IMG/VR virus record: IMGVR_UViG_2690316225_000012
DNA from: a virus
Lineage: Duplodnaviria > Heunggongvirae > Uroviricota > Caudoviricetes
Reading direction: 5' to 3' (one strand)
Length of the DNA: 7,480 nt
This document shows, in pieces, positions 1 to 7,480 of the stretch (position 1 is the first letter of the stretch; each line of letters begins with the position of its first letter). The notes under the pieces are model-generated. The model made no database searches. It had not been told where the DNA came from and was given only the letters and a program-made list of their open reading frames with translations. The position numbers were made by a program, and so were the translations under genes.

Positions 1-1
1 G

Positions 2-109
2 AATTACGAGAAGCGCCATACCAAACAGGGGATACAGACCAACCTGACGCTGAAAGAGGAAAGCTACGGCGACTGGCTGCCAAAATGTGACGACCCTGCG
101 ACAGCCTGA
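2..109 (+). CDS. 3' end of an unidentified gene (last 35 codons; start lies outside the window)
   Basis: Frame 2 is open from the window edge to TGA at 107-109 (...NYEKRHTKQGIQTNLTLKEESYGDWLPKCDDPATA*); the other two + frames contain stops. A terminator hairpin follows immediately. Product not recognised. Confidence 0.4.
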   Translation, partial: NYEKRHTKQGIQTNLTLKEESYGDWLPKCDDPATA

Positions 110-115
110 CCCACC

Positions 116-140
116 TGACCGGCATCTGCCGGTCTTTTTT
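116..140 (+). terminator. Rho-independent terminator
   Basis: Stem GACCGGC (116-122), loop ATCT, stem GCCGGTC (127-133), then T7 (134-140), 7 nt after the stop codon of the upstream partial ORF. Confidence 0.7.
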
Positions 141-470
141 TATCCCTGAATTCCCCGAAGGTGAACAATCCACTGTTCACCCTTCACCGTACATTCACCC
201 GTTATCACACTGAAATTTAAAGAGAAAAATGAAAGGTGAACAGTGTGAACAATCAAATCAAAAAAAAACTTTTTTCTCCCTGTGTGATTTCAGTTCGGGG
301 GATTAATCACCGGTATGAGTCACACCGGCAGAATGCCGGAGGTGAAGAATCGAATGTTCACCCTTCACCCATTATTCACCACCTATCACTCTGAAATAAA
401 AGGAGAAAATCAAAGGGTGAACAGTGTGAACAGTTCTTTCGAAAAAAAATTTTTTTCCTGTACGATATAG
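116..470. repeat. Two direct repeat units, about 180-bp period, roughly 80% identical by eye (approx. 116-288 and 325-468), each with internal palindromes and A/T tracts
   Basis: Unit A: GTGAACA(161-167)...TGTTCAC(174-180), TTCACC at 183-188 and 195-200, GGTGAACAGTGTGAACA (235-251), A-tract then T-tract (260-275). Unit B has the same order at +181: CCCTTCACCC (361-370), GGTGAACAGTGTGAACA (416-432), A8T7 (442-456). Each unit is preceded by a CCGGCA-N-TGCCGG hairpin (118-131; 325-339). No ORF in the track covers this region. Confidence 0.7.
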
Positions 471-743
471 CATCAATCCAAGTAAAAATGCGCTTTCATT
501 TCACATTAACTTACAGCCATTGGTATACGATTAGGTATACGCACAAAAACTGAATTAAACAAAATCGTTAAAAATCAAAGCAATATAATATTTATTCAAA
601 CTCCGCCAGCCCCCAATCATGATTGGACGGTGTAAGGACAACACCAACAAAAACAGGAAGTTAGCAGTCTCAGCAGGACACCGACCAGACGGTGAGGAGA
701 CAAAAAAGGATACGCAAAGGAGCCGCGGCTCTCAAGTGTGAAA

Positions 744-769
744 GAAGCCCGCAAATTGCGGGCTTTTTT
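744..769 (+). terminator. Rho-independent terminator
   Basis: GC-rich stem GCCCGC (747-752) / GCGGGC (758-763), extendable by A-T pairs, loop AAATT, followed by T6 (764-769). No ORF upstream, so it may end a non-coding transcript or insulate orf343. Confidence 0.8.
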
Positions 770-824
770 ATTGATCAGTCAACAATAAACAGTAACCGAA
801 TGAGAATTTAATAAGGATATTCAT

Positions 825-1856
825 ATGGAAGCTACTGTGGATTCGATTGATTTTCTGATCCGTAGTGAAGATGATTTTCTAAACTTTCTGGAAGAAATGA
901 AAGCCCGAGAGGGGCTTGATTCTAAAGAGTTTATTTTCCCTAACGTAAAGTTTGCAGGCTGGCCATCCTTAGACATAAATGTAAAAGGAGAGCGGTATCA
1001 TTCATCAATTACATCAGCAATGTTGTTTGGTATGTCAATGCTCAACGAGGAGATACAGCGGGCGTTTGCAACCATACGATACGGATCGCAGAATCTTCAA
1101 CGCTTGACTAATGAAGACAAGCAACGACTTGATATAAATTTTAAAATTAGCGAAGGTTCTAGTGATGCGGAAGGCACCACTGACAAGATCATCAACGCAG
1201 TAACTGATTTTTTGCGAGATACTATGTCTGGACTGAACGGCTGGCAGAAAATGCTTGTTATAATCACAATGGTTGGCGCGGCCAGCACATGTGGTTATCA
1301 CTACATTTCAGAAAATGCCGTAACAGAAAGACATGCAACTGATCGGCAGGTTGAAATTGCAAAAACCACATCCGATGGCATAAACAAAGCCATAGAAGCA
1401 ACATTAGATTATAAAATCTATGGGAAATCAGCGATTAGCGATAAAGTTACTAGTCACGGACAAGCAGGTAAAAGTGCTTTAGTGAAGCAATTAGCTGCTG
1501 ATCCTACTGTCGAAACCGTGACTTTAGGAAATGAGAAACTAACACGACAAGACCTAAATACCTACAACAGCCGACAATCTGTAGATAGAGAACGTAAAGA
1601 ACGAACTGATATATTTTCCATCAAAGGTGTAACCAGAACAGGGCCAACAAATCAGGATATTAATATTAACGTTGTTAGGGTCTCTAATGACGAATGCTTC
1701 ACAATCAAAGCTTCAGCTGATGTTATCACCCAAGATGAGTTGACAGCTATTGTTGACGCTTTGTCAAACAACTCTCATATTAAAATCAGTTACTTAGAGG
1801 TAATTGAAAAGGGTGCTGTTTCTATAGGTCAGTTCAACACTATTGTTTCAGAATAA
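825..1856 (+). CDS. Hypothetical protein, 343 aa, with one central hydrophobic (likely transmembrane) segment; AT-rich cargo gene of unknown function
   Basis: Long ORF with ATG at 825 and an AAGGA ribosome-binding site at 813-817 (7-nt spacing). Hydrophobic stretch WQKMLVIITMVGAASTCGYHYI. Visibly more AT-rich than the tail genes. No motif I can assign to a known family. Confidence 0.8.
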   Translation: MEATVDSIDFLIRSEDDFLNFLEEMKAREGLDSKEFIFPNVKFAGWPSLDINVKGERYHSSITSAMLFGMSMLNEEIQRAFATIRYGSQNLQRLTNEDKQRLDINFKISEGSSDAEGTTDKIINAVTDFLRDTMSGLNGWQKMLVIITMVGAASTCGYHYISENAVTERHATDRQVEIAKTTSDGINKAIEATLDYKIYGKSAISDKVTSHGQAGKSALVKQLAADPTVETVTLGNEKLTRQDLNTYNSRQSVDRERKERTDIFSIKGVTRTGPTNQDININVVRVSNDECFTIKASADVITQDELTAIVDALSNNSHIKISYLEVIEKGAVSIGQFNTIVSE

Positions 1857-1907
1857 TCACTTAACCCCATTTATGTCGGTTGAGGTTATAAGTCACGGAG
1901 ACCAGAT

Positions 1908-2252
1908 ATGTCCTTAAAGTATGCACATGAAAAATTTCATACTGCAGTACTTACTCTTGCGGGCCATGGAAGTATTCAAGAACGCTTGATTAATTCGTAT
2001 GTTTTTAGCCTTGGGCATCTTAAAACAGCCGATGATATTCCAAATGCCTTACAAAGCAGGTTCGATGAATTATGTAAGGAACTGACTAAGTTTGATGCCA
2101 CTGGCGATGAGGGGCGAGTTCAAGCAACAGTATCAAAACTTAACGATTTCGAGATCAATAAACTGATCGAAGATATTGTCAGTCTTAACGATGATATTTG
2201 CATGAAATTGGCTCTGACGGATGAGACTTACCAAGACATACACCAAAGTTAA
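1908..2252 (+). CDS. Hypothetical acidic protein, 114 aa; its last 27 codons lie inside the left inverted repeat
   Basis: ATG at 1908 with GGAG at 1897-1900 (7-nt spacing), 51 bp after orf343, same strand and AT-rich composition. Stop at 2250-2252, followed by a hairpin at 2280-2302. Confidence 0.75.
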   Translation: MSLKYAHEKFHTAVLTLAGHGSIQERLINSYVFSLGHLKTADDIPNALQSRFDELCKELTKFDATGDEGRVQATVSKLNDFEINKLIEDIVSLNDDICMKLALTDETYQDIHQS

Positions 2253-2279
2253 TTGATTAAATTCAAAAAGTTAACGTTC

Positions 2280-2302
2280 AACCAGCCAGTTTTTGGCTGG
2301 TT
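2280..2302 (+). terminator. Hairpin terminator downstream of orf114 (convergent with orf70)
   Basis: AACCAGCC (2280-2287), loop AGTTTTT, GGCTGGTT (2295-2302), followed by TATTGTCTT. Sits between the convergent orf114 and orf70. Confidence 0.55.
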
Positions 2303-2336
2303 TATTGTCTTATAATATTCTTGCTCGAATGATGCA

Positions 2337-2549
2337 CTATTTATGATGTAATCCGGACATCAGTTCATGGACAAGATTATCTCTTTCATTGTGTTGCAAC
2401 CGTAAATGCATAGCAAAAAGGTGAGCACTATCCTCATTCCTCTTCAAGCCATGCTGTTCAAGATACCCGAAAAAACGGCTTCTCTTATCCGCTATTTCCT
2501 GAGTCTGACGTGCAACATTTACCAAATTTTCTAGCGTTTTTCTTGGCAT
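2337..2549 (-). CDS. Hypothetical small basic protein, 70 aa, immediately downstream of pin (copy 1)
   Basis: Identical to ORF 6135-6347; the strong AGGAGG ribosome-binding site read from the right copy (6122-6127, 7 nt before the ATG) is present here by symmetry. Product not recognised. Confidence 0.6.
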   Translation of the reverse strand: MPRKTLENLVNVARQTQEIADKRSRFFGYLEQHGLKRNEDSAHLFAMHLRLQHNERDNLVHELMSGLHHK

Positions 2550-2747
2550 ACTATTTCCTCCTGAAATTGTTGTAATTCACTAGGATATTCATTTTAATTT
2601 GTATCATTTAGTACCAAAACCGCTATCAATTAACAAAGCCATCGTTGTGGTTTACCTTGCAGCCGTTTTTTGTCATTGACTCTATGTGAAAATAATGAAT
2701 CATCATGAGATTGGCTCACACGTTCTTGAATTCGACGAGCTGTGTCT

Positions 2748-3302
2748 TTATTTATCTCCTGCCGGAAACCTCTGATACAAAGTCGATACGCCAACATCAT
2801 AGATAATCGCAACTTTCTGGCGCGGAACTCCTGATGCAATTAATCGTCCGGCTTGTGCCCATTGTTCTGGTGTAAGTTTGGGACGACGTCCACCAATTCG
2901 TCCCTGTGCGCGAGCAGCTTCCAGTCCAGCTTTTGTTCGTTCAACAATCAGTTCTCGTTCCATTTCAGCCAGGGCCCCCATCACATGAAAGAAAAAGCGC
3001 CCCATTGGGGTACTGGTATCAATTGAATCCGTCAGACTACGAAAGTTGATGCCTCGTTCGCGCAACTCCTCCACCAGCACGACAAGATGCCGCATACTGC
3101 GCCCCAGTCGGTCCAGTTTCCAGACCACCAGCGTATCGCCTGCCGATAATGTCCTGAGCAGTTTTTTCAGTCCCGGCCTTTCGGACTTTGTACCGCTTAT
3201 CTTGTCTTCAAAAATCAGCTCGCATCCTGCACAGTTCAGCGCATTACGTTGTAGATCTGTGTTCTGGTCATTTGTTGACACACGTACATAGCCAATAAGC
3301 AT
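2748..3302 (-). CDS. pin: Serine DNA invertase, Hin/Gin/Cin/Pin family (copy 1), 184 aa
   Basis: Translation MLIGYVRVSTNDQ... has the N-terminal catalytic Ser10 motif of small serine recombinases and a C-terminal helix-turn-helix region (GVPRQKVAIIYDVGVSTLYQRF). Preferred start is the internal ATG at 3300-3302, which has a GGAG site 7 nt upstream, not the ORF-track start at 3338. I recognise it as e14 Pin-like. Confidence 0.9.
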   Translation of the reverse strand: MLIGYVRVSTNDQNTDLQRNALNCAGCELIFEDKISGTKSERPGLKKLLRTLSAGDTLVVWKLDRLGRSMRHLVVLVEELRERGINFRSLTDSIDTSTPMGRFFFHVMGALAEMERELIVERTKAGLEAARAQGRIGGRRPKLTPEQWAQAGRLIASGVPRQKVAIIYDVGVSTLYQRFPAGDK

Positions 3303-3356
3303 GGTAGATCTCCCTGACAAAAGCAGGAATGATGCCATTTGCTCGTTATTTCTGCA

Positions 3357-3382
3357 TTTTCATAAACGTTGGTTTGGGAGAA
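3357..3382. other. 26-bp invertase crossover site 1 (pix/gix/hix-like)
   Basis: TTTTCATAAACG-TT-GGTTTGGGAGAA: two imperfectly palindromic 12-bp half-sites around a 2-bp AA/TT core, matching the architecture of hixL/gixL/cix sites. Located between pin and variable cassette A, in frame for GLGE. Confidence 0.75.
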
Positions 3383-3383
3383 G

Positions 3384-3823
3384 CGGCAAAACGAAATGTG
3401 GGCAACGGGGAAAACCAAATCCCTGATATGTCTTTCTGGACGGTTACTGGTGGCAATGGAAATTTTGTGATTCGTCAACCTGACGGGCTAATCATTCAGA
3501 TGGTTACTGTAAGTATAAGCGGTCCAGTGGCGATGAATGGAATGACTGATAATGCTTATGCCATTACAGGTTCTAATAAGTCTTATATTGCCACAGCCAC
3601 ATTGCCCTTTGTATTTCCTAATAAGGTGCTGGGCGTTATCCCTCTGGTATCAACAACAGCTTATGGTGGTGTATCCAGTAATATTACAGGTTCATACGCG
3701 ACGGCGGTTTGTTCTTTTGCCGCTGTCAGGGGGAATAATACGATTGTGTTCAAAGTCGACAAACCACTGAATGCAGCCTTTCCTTCAGATACCAGCGTCT
3801 CAGCGTTAATCATTGGACGGTAA
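3384..3823 (+). CDS. Side tail-fibre C-terminal variable cassette A (no start codon of its own; in frame with the GLGE codons of site 1)
   Basis: ORF track 3329-3823; the first 18 residues (MMPFARYFCIFINVGLGE) are read from pin-upstream and crossover-site sequence shared with cassette B, so the listed start is not real. Sequence diverges from cassette B exactly after GLGE. Confidence 0.75.
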
Positions 3824-3825
3824 GA

Positions 3826-4269
3826 ATGAACTCAGTATTCTTTTCACCCGCAAGTAAAAGTTTTTATCTGCAAGAATTGTTTCCAGAATATGAGGATGCG
3901 GGAACGCTTCCTGATGATGTTATTGAAATTACCAGAGAAACATATGAGCAATTTCTTGGGCTGCATCCAGAAGGGAAAGAAATTGGCGCTGACAGTTCAG
4001 GACGGCCAATATGGATTAATTCCCCGCCGCCTTCAAAAGAGGATGAGATGCTGGCGGCTGAAATGAAAAAGATATCTTTGGTTTCAGAAGTCAATACCTA
4101 CATCAATACCCATCAGTGGCCTGGCAAAGCTGCTATTGGTCGTCTGAAAGGTTACGAGCTGGAACAATATAATTTATGGCTGGATTATCTGGACGCACTG
4201 GAACTGGTTGATACCTCCAGTGCTCCAGATATTGAATGGCCTACGCCTCCGGTAGTTCAGGCCAGATGA
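3826..4269 (+). CDS. Tail fibre assembly protein (Tfa), paired with cassette A
   Basis: 147 aa ending ...YLDALELVDTSSAPDIEWPTPP, the conserved Tfa C-terminal motif. ATG lies 2 nt after the cassette A stop. Confidence 0.85.
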   Translation: MNSVFFSPASKSFYLQELFPEYEDAGTLPDDVIEITRETYEQFLGLHPEGKEIGADSSGRPIWINSPPPSKEDEMLAAEMKKISLVSEVNTYINTHQWPGKAAIGRLKGYELEQYNLWLDYLDALELVDTSSAPDIEWPTPPVVQAR

Positions 4270-4846
4270 CATCCGGCGCGGTGCTGGTATCTGTTGCAGT
4301 CACCGCGTCAATGTAATCCAGCACAGCGTTAAGCCGGGTTGTTTCTGCCTGCGTCAGCTTCCGCCCGGCCTGCAATTTCAGCTGAATCAGACTAATGGAA
4401 GCCATAGCAGCATCAATCAGTGACTGGCGCCGTACTTCTGCCGCGTCTACTGCGGCGTTATGCTGTGCCTCAGTATCGGTCACCCATTTCTCACCATCCC
4501 ATTTATCGTATGACGTTAACGGGGCGATAGTGGTTGTATTTTCAGGGTAATCACCCGGAACTGTGATTTCTTTTGATTCTCCTGTTTCGGTGCTATAGAC
4601 GATTTCACCGCGATGGTCTGGCACATATTCCCATGAGTTAAAATCTGCAGAACGGCAAATTGCATAACCAGCTTTATATGAGCCAGGAGCATCTAAACAG
4701 GAACATGCCGGGATACCAACACCCACAGCAAGATATTCAGTTGATGTGGAAATATATTCCCGTGTTTCACCATCATAATTATAAACGGTAATGTCTCCGG
4801 CCTTTGTGGCGATGAGTTCATTATTTAATACAGCTTTACTTATCAT
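4241..4846 (-). CDS. Tail fibre assembly protein (Tfa), paired with cassette B
   Basis: 201 aa ending ...LDYIDAVTATDTSTAPDVIWPELPEA (Tfa C-terminal motif). Start overlaps the cassette B stop as ATGA (4843-4846); its 3' end overlaps the other tfa by 29 bp. Confidence 0.85.
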   Translation of the reverse strand: MISKAVLNNELIATKAGDITVYNYDGETREYISTSTEYLAVGVGIPACSCLDAPGSYKAGYAICRSADFNSWEYVPDHRGEIVYSTETGESKEITVPGDYPENTTTIAPLTSYDKWDGEKWVTDTEAQHNAAVDAAEVRRQSLIDAAMASISLIQLKLQAGRKLTQAETTRLNAVLDYIDAVTATDTSTAPDVIWPELPEA

Positions 4847-5300
4847 GCAGCCCTCACAATATAATTAAAGGCGATGTTACGGGAGCGGGTTTCAGATGCT
4901 GTGCGAACTGAGCGAGATGCGTCGAATGTCCAGTTATAAGCGCCATAACCCTCAATAATTTCGGCTTCCTTTAGACCTGTAGATAATACTTGCCCATGTT
5001 GACTAAATGGCCCTGAACTAAGTACGTCTCTAAAAAGCTGGGTACGCCCAAAAGAACCAACAATATTCTGAATTGCATCATTCTGTGCAGATAATAAGTT
5101 ACGACCAGAGTCAATCCCGCGCCCATCATCCCAGCCACGAATAAATTCACCGCGTAAATCTGGTAATTTTAATGTTGGGTAAGCCTTTGCCAGATTTGGG
5201 TACTTTTCAGAAGAAAATACTGCTCCGTTACATTTTAGCCACCCCGTTGGCGGAGTGGCGGAAGGCCACGGAACAGGCACACCAACGGGTAATGCCGAAC
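4843..5300 (-). CDS. Side tail-fibre C-terminal variable cassette B (no start codon of its own; in frame with the GLGE codons of site 2)
   Basis: ORF track 4843-5355. After GLGE: GSALPVGVPVPWPSATPPTGWLKCNGAVFSSEKYPNLAKAYPTLKLPDLRGEFIRGWDDGRG...RNIAFNYIVRAA, which I recognise as a Mu S / e14 StfE-type fibre C-terminus. Confidence 0.8.
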
Positions 5301-5301
5301 C

Positions 5302-5327
5302 TTCTCCCAAACCAACGTTTATGAAAA
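5302..5327. other. 26-bp invertase crossover site 2 (inverted copy of site 1)
   Basis: TTCTCCCAAACC-AA-CGTTTATGAAAA; exact reverse complement of site 1; encodes FINVGLGE on the minus strand at the start of cassette B. Confidence 0.75.
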
Positions 5328-5381
5328 TGCAGAAATAACGAGCAAATGGCATCATTCCTGCTTTTGTCAGGGAGATCTACC

Positions 5382-5936
5382 ATGCTTATTGGCTATGTAC
5401 GTGTGTCAACAAATGACCAGAACACAGATCTACAACGTAATGCGCTGAACTGTGCAGGATGCGAGCTGATTTTTGAAGACAAGATAAGCGGTACAAAGTC
5501 CGAAAGGCCGGGACTGAAAAAACTGCTCAGGACATTATCGGCAGGCGATACGCTGGTGGTCTGGAAACTGGACCGACTGGGGCGCAGTATGCGGCATCTT
5601 GTCGTGCTGGTGGAGGAGTTGCGCGAACGAGGCATCAACTTTCGTAGTCTGACGGATTCAATTGATACCAGTACCCCAATGGGGCGCTTTTTCTTTCATG
5701 TGATGGGGGCCCTGGCTGAAATGGAACGAGAACTGATTGTTGAACGAACAAAAGCTGGACTGGAAGCTGCTCGCGCACAGGGACGAATTGGTGGACGTCG
5801 TCCCAAACTTACACCAGAACAATGGGCACAAGCCGGACGATTAATTGCATCAGGAGTTCCGCGCCAGAAAGTTGCGATTATCTATGATGTTGGCGTATCG
5901 ACTTTGTATCAGAGGTTTCCGGCAGGAGATAAATAA
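5382..5936 (+). CDS. pin: Serine DNA invertase, Hin/Gin/Cin/Pin family (copy 2), 184 aa
   Basis: Identical translation to copy 1; GGAG at 5371-5374, ATG at 5382. The ORF-track start at 5346 adds 12 codons with no ribosome-binding site and is not preferred. Confidence 0.9.
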   Translation: MLIGYVRVSTNDQNTDLQRNALNCAGCELIFEDKISGTKSERPGLKKLLRTLSAGDTLVVWKLDRLGRSMRHLVVLVEELRERGINFRSLTDSIDTSTPMGRFFFHVMGALAEMERELIVERTKAGLEAARAQGRIGGRRPKLTPEQWAQAGRLIASGVPRQKVAIIYDVGVSTLYQRFPAGDK

Positions 5937-6134
5937 AGACACAGCTCGTCGAATTCAAGAACGTGTGAGCCAATCTCATGATGATTCATTATTTTCACAT
6001 AGAGTCAATGACAAAAAACGGCTGCAAGGTAAACCACAACGATGGCTTTGTTAATTGATAGCGGTTTTGGTACTAAATGATACAAATTAAAATGAATATC
6101 CTAGTGAATTACAACAATTTCAGGAGGAAATAGT

Positions 6135-6347
6135 ATGCCAAGAAAAACGCTAGAAAATTTGGTAAATGTTGCACGTCAGACTCAGGAAATAGCGGATAAG
6201 AGAAGCCGTTTTTTCGGGTATCTTGAACAGCATGGCTTGAAGAGGAATGAGGATAGTGCTCACCTTTTTGCTATGCATTTACGGTTGCAACACAATGAAA
6301 GAGATAATCTTGTCCATGAACTGATGTCCGGATTACATCATAAATAG
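6135..6347 (+). CDS. Hypothetical small basic protein, 70 aa, downstream of pin (copy 2)
   Basis: AGGAGG at 6122-6127, ATG at 6135; identical to 2337-2549 (-). Confidence 0.6.
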   Translation: MPRKTLENLVNVARQTQEIADKRSRFFGYLEQHGLKRNEDSAHLFAMHLRLQHNERDNLVHELMSGLHHK

Positions 6348-6381
6348 TGCATCATTCGAGCAAGAATATTATAAGACAATA

Positions 6382-6404
6382 AACCAGCCAAAAACTGGCT
6401 GGTT
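6382..6404 (-). terminator. Hairpin terminator (inverted-repeat copy of 2280-2302), here oriented to end the truncated fibre transcript
   Basis: Reverse complement of the 2280-2302 hairpin; on the minus strand the stem is followed by TATTGTCTT. Confidence 0.5.
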
Positions 6405-6431
6405 GAACGTTAACTTTTTGAATTTAATCAA

Positions 6432-6818
6432 TTAACTTTGGTGTATGTCTTGGTAAGTCTCATCCGTCAGAGCCAATTTCATGCAAATATCATCGTTAAG
6501 ACTGACAATATCTACTTCTCCCAAACCAAGGTTTTCGAGAGCCGTTTTCACCGTGCCATCAGATTTGATATCGCCAAACGGATTCTTGCGGCTTAACAGC
6601 AGCGCACGAAGCGCGGTAAGCAGCTGGTCATGCCGCCCCTTCTCCAGGCTGGCACCGGATGCCTCCACCACGCTGCAGAGTTCTTCCTGCAACATGTCAA
6701 AGTAGTCATCATCCAGATCGGTGGCAGGTGTGCCGGTCTGGGGGTTACCACGGGTAAAACCGTTCTTACCCGCGCCGAACTTATCCTTCTGCGCGGTTTT
6801 CGTGTCTATACGATGCAT
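6432..6818 (-). CDS. Side tail-fibre N-terminal constant domain, fused in this arrangement to a 27-aa tail copied from orf114 (truncated fibre)
   Basis: ATG at 6816-6818 with GGAG 7 nt upstream, 3 nt after the YmfQ-like stop. [21 protein letters not shown]...[10 protein letters not shown] looks like a fibre N-terminal domain and ends in the GLGE crossover-site codons. The ORF then runs into the inverted repeat and ends [27 protein letters not shown], identical to the orf114 C-terminus. Confidence 0.7.
6516..6541. other. 26-bp invertase crossover site 3, inside the fibre constant-domain gene
   Basis: TTCTCCCAAACC-AA-GGTTTTCGAGAG: the left half-site is identical to that of site 2, the right half-site is fibre-specific; encodes LENLGLGE in the fibre frame; 2 nt from the inverted-repeat boundary. 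Confidence 0.7.
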
Positions 6819-6821
6819 GGA

Positions 6822-7479
<658 letters not shown>

Positions 7480-7480
7480 C

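Follow-up and report, generated by a model that had tools for sequence, protein, structure and literature searches.

We detected, in a 7,480-nucleotide stretch of viral DNA (IMG/VR record IMGVR_UViG_2690316225_000012, Caudoviricetes; the whole stretch is called the window here), a Pin-type tail-fibre inversion switch in which the complete invertase module is present twice, as the arms of a perfect inverted repeat. The locus is a canonical e14/Mu-type Pin switch in a small ssrA-linked prophage remnant beside a P4-like element. Its right arm is an insertion separating the two alternative fibre cassettes from the constant part of the fibre gene (Sc), and the directly repeated crossover sites B and C flank this insertion. 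The underlying Pin/e14-type system is already known, and the duplication does not make a new type of switch: it either happened once, secondarily and very recently, in a decayed E. coli prophage remnant, or was produced by the assembly. Whether it is a real, recent rearrangement appears to us evenly balanced, and the possibility of an artefact is serious. The parts of the switch, by window position, are the following.

1908-2252, plus strand: orf114, an intact cargo gene whose final 82 nt (2171-2252) lie inside the left arm
2171-3383: left arm, the original copy in its native context, adjoining orf114 and orf343 as in all single-copy relatives
2280-2302, plus strand: terminator-like hairpin, copy 1, with a 10-bp stem and a T-rich tail, between the convergent orf114 and orf70
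2337-2549, minus strand: orf70, copy 1, an open reading frame of unassigned function, hypothetical in relatives
2748-3302, minus strand: pin, copy 1, a 184-amino-acid DNA invertase (Pfam Resolvase and HTH_7), identical to WP_000904997.1 pinE
3357-3382, plus strand: site A, TTTTCATAAACG-TT-GGTTTGGGAGAA (pin-side half, core, cassette-side half), the reference orientation
3384-3823, plus strand: Sv2, alternative fibre C-terminal cassette, starting AAKRNVG...; weak Gp53-like_C match
3826-4269, plus strand: tfa2, tail-fibre assembly gene for Sv2; Caudo_TAP, E=6e-27
4241-4846, minus strand: tfa1 (tfaE-like), tail-fibre assembly gene for Sv1; Caudo_TAP, E=6e-32; annotated tfaE in strain 602687
4843-5300, minus strand: Sv1, alternative fibre C-terminal cassette, starting GSALPVG...; Collar domain, E=2e-15
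5301-6513: right arm, the additional pin module in inverted orientation, which together with base 6514 makes up a 1,214-bp insertion
5302-5327, minus strand: site B, with the sequence of A, opposite in orientation to A and in the same orientation as C; a site type not found in the single-copy relatives
5382-5936, plus strand: pin, copy 2, identical to copy 1
6135-6347, plus strand: orf70, copy 2, open reading frame
6382-6404, minus strand: terminator hairpin, copy 2, mirror of 2280-2302
6432-6513, minus strand: orphan 3' piece of orf114, 82 nt, fused in frame to Sc
6432-6818, minus strand: truncated fibre open reading frame, 101 amino acids of Sc (ending ...ENLGLGE) plus 27 from the orf114 piece, 128 in all
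6514: orphan base of the new junction, reading A on the plus and T on the minus strand, not templated by orf114 (A, minus-strand reading), Sv1 (G) or Sv2 (C)
6516-6541, minus strand: site C, made up of the Sc-side half CTCTCGAAAACC, the core TT and the cassette-side half GGTTTGGGAGAA; opposite in orientation to A and in the same orientation as B

A repeat search of the window returned the inverted repeat 2171-3383 against 5301-6513, with 1,213 nt per arm, 100% complementarity and a 1,917-nt spacer. String comparison gave exact reverse-complement identity, and extension fails even by one base at both arms; a perfect repeat of 1.2 kb far exceeds what chance could produce. An earlier note, prepared from the letters of the window, had described pin, orf70, the hairpin and 82 nt of orf114 in each arm, and the coordinates and contents all match. 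Its claim of identical arms holds for 1,213 of 1,213 nt in the full reverse-complement comparison, with no divergence, and the inner arm ends do coincide with crossover sites, A at 3357-3382 and B at 5302-5327. The note had also placed a pin gene on both flanks of the invertible segment. Two copies are present there, but the second is an insertion that creates a third site and truncates the fibre to 128 amino acids; the anatomy given was correct but incomplete, since site C and the interruption of the fibre were missed.

All three 26-bp crossover sites are intact, with a 12-2-12 layout and an asymmetric core, and fit the invertase crossover consensus tabulated in PMC4134206 (Table 3), where the EC958 Phi2 site GAGAGATAAACGTT-GGTTTGGGGGAA resembles site A. 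Sites B and C enclose the right-hand pin copy as direct repeats at a distance of 1,214 bp, and site C carries the half-site belonging to Sc. The outer end of the right arm (6513) adjoins site C with the single base 6514 between them, and the novel junction reads GGGAGAAG-T-AGATATTG. Its sole truly new adjacency is ...GGTTTGGGAGAAG-T-AGATATTG..., in which the end of the shared crossover sequence is joined to orf114 position 2171. No pix-like sequence was found on the orf114 side, to the left of 2171 (AATAAACTGATCGA). Several BLAST hits (H51-H59) ran 11-14 nt beyond site C through chance resemblance to an unrelated cassette (GAAGCCAGATATGTCA), which is present neither in strain 602687 nor in the window.

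The comparison with 5,426 complete E. coli genomes provided a single-pin parent. The best match, strain 602687, has one pin and the ordinary layout beside ssrA, in the order orf343, orf114, orf70, pinE, Sv2, tfa, tfaE, a 253-amino-acid Sc-Sv1 fibre gene, ymfQ and IS3. After in silico deletion of one B-to-C unit, the window from position 621 to its end is an exact 5,646-nt substring of this genome, with the fibre identical at 253 amino acids, and the only differences between the window and 602687 lie in the attachment-site remnant at 595-615. The proposal in the earlier note that the duplication is recent agrees with these 0 differences in the remaining locus. Strain PS1Thumoskin9 is the exact flip isomer, with the exchange at the A and C cores and 0 other differences in 5,646 nt, and site A is the exact crossover point between the two strains. 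At the level of sequence, the pair cleanly documents that Pin-type inversion at the core dinucleotides has taken place in nature. Because PS1Thumoskin9 is an exact flip isomer of the 602687-type sequence, the parental switch appears active: it is a canonical two-site Pin switch that inverts in this lineage. The two strains are unrelated isolates, from Bangladesh and China, with 0 substitutions over 5.6 kb and the cassette segments in opposite orientation.

Single-copy layouts were found in the complete genomes with the module and in the long contigs with this exact Pin. A 5.15-Mb contig (L087; L labels denote the loci compared) has the full window architecture, including the P4-like element at the left, with one pin. 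The orf114-orf70 module occurs in 46 of the 5,426 complete genomes, single-copy and with full-length orf114 in every one, and the long contigs carrying this exact Pin are likewise single-copy (10/10). The comparison with relatives, which the earlier note had proposed as a gauge of how common the duplication is, thus returned one copy in each of the 46 complete genomes with the module. Strain 602687 additionally carries, about 2 kb past IS3 (L001 10685-10825), a 143-nt piece that shares 85% identity with the middle part of pin (window 3033-3173). Its annotation is that of a recombinase pseudogene, which makes it one more remnant of a decayed invertase within this island.

The consequence of the insertion for the fibre is direct. 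The Sc part matches tail-fibre PHROGs, and the reverse-strand reading runs from Sc through site C in frame into the orf114 piece, not into a cassette, and then to a stop codon. Sv1 joined to Sc gives the 253-amino-acid fibre in 602687, and Sv2 joined to Sc gives a 247-amino-acid fibre in PS1Thumoskin9 and L087. A host-range switch has Sc reading into a cassette with its tfa gene; the parent does so in both orientations (602687 and PS1Thumoskin9), and the window as assembled does not. The tail of orf114 was considered as a third natural fibre cassette and rejected, orf114 being intact and contiguous in all 46 genomes with the module.

Isomers of the three-site locus were constructed explicitly in silico from sites A, B and C, and four are predicted, two fibre-OFF and two fibre-ON. 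In the isomer as assembled, the pin copies are inverted and the fibre is truncated at 128 amino acids. Inversion between A and B, or RecA exchange between the arms, would flip the cassettes and leave the fibre at 128 amino acids. Inversion between A and C would place the pin modules in direct tandem (arms at 2171 and 3385) and restore the fibre, as Sc-Sv2 of 247 or Sc-Sv1 of 253 amino acids. Deletion between B and C would excise a 1,214-bp circle and regenerate the parent exactly, with the 253-amino-acid fibre. Invertases of the Hin/Gin/Cin/Pin family strongly prefer inversion to deletion. Direct repeats of 1.2 kb are rapidly lost through homologous recombination, and inverted repeats only flip; a RecA-dependent flip between the 1.2-kb arms is a reasonable expectation. 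The inverted isomer would be the form likely to persist, because homologous recombination deletes direct repeats and merely flips inverted ones, and the tandem isomer would collapse by RecA.

A survey of 79 IMG/VR Pin loci turned up several that bear on the quality of assemblies at such switches. In L013 (5721-11741), a single N joins two 3,010-nt copies, 100% identical and each with pin and a crossover site, into a false tandem duplication. An N join at L064 3837 leaves two sites in direct, that is, wrong relative orientation. L095 (NZ_CP148395.1, "plasmid pZ1323HEC0010-5", part of a complete RefSeq genome) is a 2,637-bp "circular plasmid" equal to window 732-3368; it holds orf343, orf114, orf70 and pinE and ends at the last base of the pin-side half-site. 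We found in it no replication gene and, at its other end, no quasi-site; it is probably a spurious circularised graph segment and, less likely, an excised circle. A different case is L006 (IMGVR_UViG_2585427784_000007, 1-3596), in which two pin genes enclose another pair of cassettes. Its arms, at least 1,046 nt long, are 100% mutually identical and one single-nucleotide polymorphism (SNP) away from the window arms, and 24 SNPs in the flanks indicate a different strain. ssrA and smpB lie on its other side and the record is trimmed at the orf70 gene boundary; a hairpin contig and a second real case would each account for it. A homologue search for L006 gave only relatives at 98%, and scans for the Sc-to-cassette junctions of its genome retrieved none of its contigs. 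A single-N join in or near the invertible fibre segment was also seen at L012 6098, an IMG/VR isolate record.

An assembly artefact, which we judge somewhat short of an even chance, would have arisen from a culture containing both flip isomers of a one-pin switch: the assembler, scaffolder or gap-closer would have run from the Sv1 end into the pin of the other isomer and been joined, through one spurious base, to a contig starting at the site C branch. A considerable body of evidence points this way and weighs against a real duplication. The junction is present in 0 of the 5,426 complete E. coli genomes and was not found in IMG/VR, JGI metagenomes or GTDB representatives; the fusion open reading frame is not in the exact-protein index, and none of 5.8 billion protein clusters spans Sc and the 27-amino-acid tail. 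The arrangement is a singleton, the 46 complete genomes and 10 long contigs all having one copy. The breakpoints 3383, 5301 and 6515, with 2171 excepted, are divergence points of the isomers and hence branch points of the assembly graph, and the EC958 paper warns that contigs of invertible fibre loci in alternate orientation can yield artefactual duplications (PMC4134206). Artefacts occur in the sister loci L013, L064 and L095, and many Sc proteins in databases are partial genes ending at contig ends shortly after the site. The outer junction of L006 is hidden by the trimming of its record, and this locus may be a hairpin contig. Arms made from the same reads used twice would be trivially identical, and the single orphan base at the join is suggestive only. 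On the other side, the window has no N or other non-ACGT base, and the novel junction is internal, not at a contig end. Mixing of isomers alone cannot make the 2170/2171 breakpoint: a mosaic or repeat boundary at 2171, which would give a graph branch, was looked for and is absent from all 46 genomes with the module. We identified no concrete assembler step that writes the 6514 junction. The documented artefacts of the EC958 type share with the window the kind of locus and the breakpoints at isomer divergence points, but they are separate alternate contigs or N-joined or overlapping contigs, whereas the junction in the window contains no N and falls cleanly at a position that is not a repeat. 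The right end of the window is exactly 99 nt of IS3, probably a k-mer overlap at the contig end, and at the left contig end all of 1-330 is conserved among P4-like elements, which is consistent with a repeat boundary at position 99/100 and not diagnostic. This suggests that the window is a complete k=99 de Bruijn contig, starting in a multi-copy P4-like region; because of this, the junction k-mers should be present in the reads, internal junction k-mers normally requiring read support. L006 would count for a real rearrangement as a second independent strain with pin on both sides.

The small remaining probability is divided between two other accounts, each of which we hold to be very improbable. 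One is that the second pin came from the inversion system of another prophage, or that Pin integrated a pin circle made at a quasi-site in orf114. Crossover between the sites of two prophages does occur, as in strain FDAARGOS_1287, where the same remnant has a different second invertase beyond the cassettes; the direct repeats B and C on the two sides of the insert are what integration of a circle would produce, and L095 is readable as a pin-carrying circle. Import from another prophage is, however, ruled out for the window by the 100% identity of the arms including the orf114 piece, which makes the same locus the donor. An exchange by Pin at a quasi-site, or the integration of a circle that Pin had made, does not fit because the orf114 side has no pix-like sequence, as the other end of L095 also has no quasi-site, and because the junction keeps the full cassette-side half-site and an orphan base, neither of which a core crossover would leave. 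This origin is therefore largely refuted by the junction sequence. The other account is a stable, evolved two-invertase design whose copies are kept identical by gene conversion or RecA flip-flop, the single-pin strains being deletion derivatives. The arms of L006, identical to each other and one SNP from those of the window, show the pattern expected of concerted evolution, and deletion between B and C would regenerate the single-pin strains exactly. Against it, the fibre gene is broken in this arrangement, the junction is in no other assembly or protein set searched although the exact Pin occurs in 1,520 index blocks, and the locus has 0 substitutions relative to 602687 across 5.6 kb; the uniformly single-copy state of the 46 module genomes and the uniqueness of the junction make the ongoing gene conversion raised in the earlier note unlikely.

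If the duplication is a real event, the composition of the insertion suggests how it could have formed. The insertion consists of a crossover site, pin, orf70, the terminator, 82 nt of orf114 and the orphan base, placed exactly at the Sc/cassette site. The most likely route would be a template switch during replication, in which a nascent strand, having copied 15-20 nt of one crossover site, whose shared part is 15 nt, would pair with the inverted copy 1.9 kb away, copy back 1.2 kb through pin and return to the first unpaired base of the original template. Such a switch would leave the inner arm ends on the sites, a full site C at the outer junction, identical arms and one untemplated base. 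Template switching at quasi-palindromes is known in E. coli. A two-step alternative would be an illegitimate tandem duplication of 2171-3383 followed by Pin inversion between A and C; this would require a duplication endpoint at the site boundary by chance. Replication-based models for inverted duplications exist, for instance ODIRA (PMC4689423). Duplications of the ODIRA or template-switch type have, like the window, a short inverted repeat at the inner ends and an illegitimate outer junction; ODIRA, however, gives inverted triplications with closely spaced repeats, whereas the window has repeats 1.9 kb apart and a duplication with a unique spacer.

We propose only tentatively, and consider rather doubtful in its full form, that the duplication took place in vivo, with the Pin sites, possibly held by Pin, acting as a 15-20-nt inverted repeat that provoked a snap-back template switch, with a self-trapping four-isomer switch as the outcome and with L006 as a second independent case. 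Were the snap-back proposal true, the locus would have two invertase genes and two enhancers, in an inverted form resisting RecA-mediated loss. An independent occurrence in L006 would point to a recurrent mode of failure or evolution of invertase switches and to a route for the duplication and spread of invertase modules.

The closest known system is the e14 Pin/P-segment (pinE, stfP/stfE, tfaP/tfaE), which has the same order of ymfQ, constant fibre part, 26-bp site, two opposed Sv and tfa pairs, 26-bp site and pin. The window locus differs in that the remnant is linked to ssrA and not to icd, its cargo is orf70, orf114 and orf343 and not mcrA, and it adds a second, inverted pin module and a third site, with the fibre gene interrupted. 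Gin/G of Mu, Cin/C of P1 and Hin/H of Salmonella, whose serine DNA invertases depend on Fis and an enhancer, share with it 12-2-12 sites with an asymmetric core; these systems have one invertase gene outside a two-site segment, whereas the window has two genes and three sites. Min of plasmid p15B also has more than two crossover sites and more than two isomers, but its extra sites bound extra fibre cassettes, whereas the extra site here bounds a duplicated pin module and adds fibre-OFF states only. With three sites and two cassettes, the window does not belong with the multiple-inversion systems of Min type.

Among natural loci, the one that comes nearest in having invertases at both flanks is FDAARGOS_1287 (NZ_CP070071.1, L002 8156-11337), which has the same cassettes and the same ssrA remnant. 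Its second invertase is about 82% identical and belongs to a P2-like prophage, followed by tail sheath, tube and tape-measure genes, whereas the copy in the window is a 100% self-duplication that includes the orf114 piece. FDAARGOS_1287 is apparently a chromosomal rearrangement through crossover between the inversion sites of two prophages. Our literature searches brought up no description of a switch of this kind whose invertase module had duplicated itself.

Pin (184 amino acids) matches PF00239 (E=1.5e-51) and PF02796 (E=3.6e-13) and aligns to Mu Gin (3UJ3) over its full length, residues 1-181 (E=1.3e-93). Pin reads MLIGYVRVSTNDQ at the YVRVS motif containing the catalytic serine, and the crystallised Gin has A at that serine. 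The Gln/Arg/Leu patch for Fis contact appears conserved in the alignment (QAGRL); in Hin this patch contacts Fis (PMC3798978). The domains, the similarity to Gin, the site architecture and the natural flip isomers, all of them features read from sequences, place Pin and the switch in the Hin/Gin/Cin/Pin family. The Hin enhancer lies about 100 bp from hixL (PMC3798978), and the earlier note had pointed to the duplication of the 5' region of the invertase gene, where the enhancer of related systems sits. A second enhancer would follow trivially if that of Pin has the same location as that of Hin; the Fis consensus scan of the window was uninformative, giving 4 hits where 7.5 are expected and none inside pin.

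The direct biological consequence is small because this is a well-known Pin/e14-type switch in a prophage remnant without other tail genes; the duplication breaks the fibre gene and adds no function. Cryptic switches can nevertheless affect the host, as PinQ/StfE2 blocks T2 adsorption (PMC12529663). The interest of the locus is in its possible generating mechanism, in the predicted four-isomer behaviour and in the caution it suggests for assemblies of invertible loci. If the event is real, the short inverted crossover sites of an inversion switch can give rise to an inverted duplication of its invertase module on the kilobase scale. A host-range switch with two states would then have four, OFF states among them, and the inverted form would shield the duplicated module from homologous deletion; this would extend, modestly but concretely, what is known of the evolution and decay of inversion switches. 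If it is an artefact, the window is a worked example of invertible prophage segments corrupting assemblies.

The switch is bordered by the following features.

1-109, plus strand: 3'-terminal part of the gene for a P4-like primase-helicase; L087 is collinear here and has the end of a 777-amino-acid primase coding sequence
155-457, plus strand: two 122-bp direct repeats with a spacing of 181, carrying TGTTCACC iterons
595-615, plus strand: degenerate copy of the ssrA 3' end (attachment-site remnant), where homology to the ssrA-linked remnant of 602687 begins
825-1856, plus strand: orf343, cargo gene; phrog_6191 (function not assigned), E=7e-38
6822-7381, minus strand: ymfQ-like baseplate gene (Mu gp48 family); Phage_Mu_Gp48, E=1e-26; 5' end cut by IS3
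7382-7480: end of an IS3-family element, exactly 99 nt; IS3 transposase is annotated here in 602687 and PS1Thumoskin9

The left end of the window is the right end of a P4-like satellite prophage. Relatives annotate a primase-helicase under 1-109, and five exact TGTTCACC motifs occur at 160-423, against 0.32 expected; we take the repeats at 155-457 to resemble a P4 crr-type replication element with alpha-protein iterons. In 602687 the pin remnant directly abuts ssrA, and in the window genome and L087 the P4-like element sits between them. The Rfam scan matched no family in the window, and the Pfam and PADLOC searches with orf343, orf114 and orf70 gave no matches, the sole match being phrog_6191 for orf343. 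The annotated start codon of the ymfQ-like gene falls within the IS3 end. The orf343-orf114-orf70 cargo is a candidate accessory or defence module; it occupies the place of mcrA in e14 and is found at the ssrA or the e14 (about 1.2 Mb) position.

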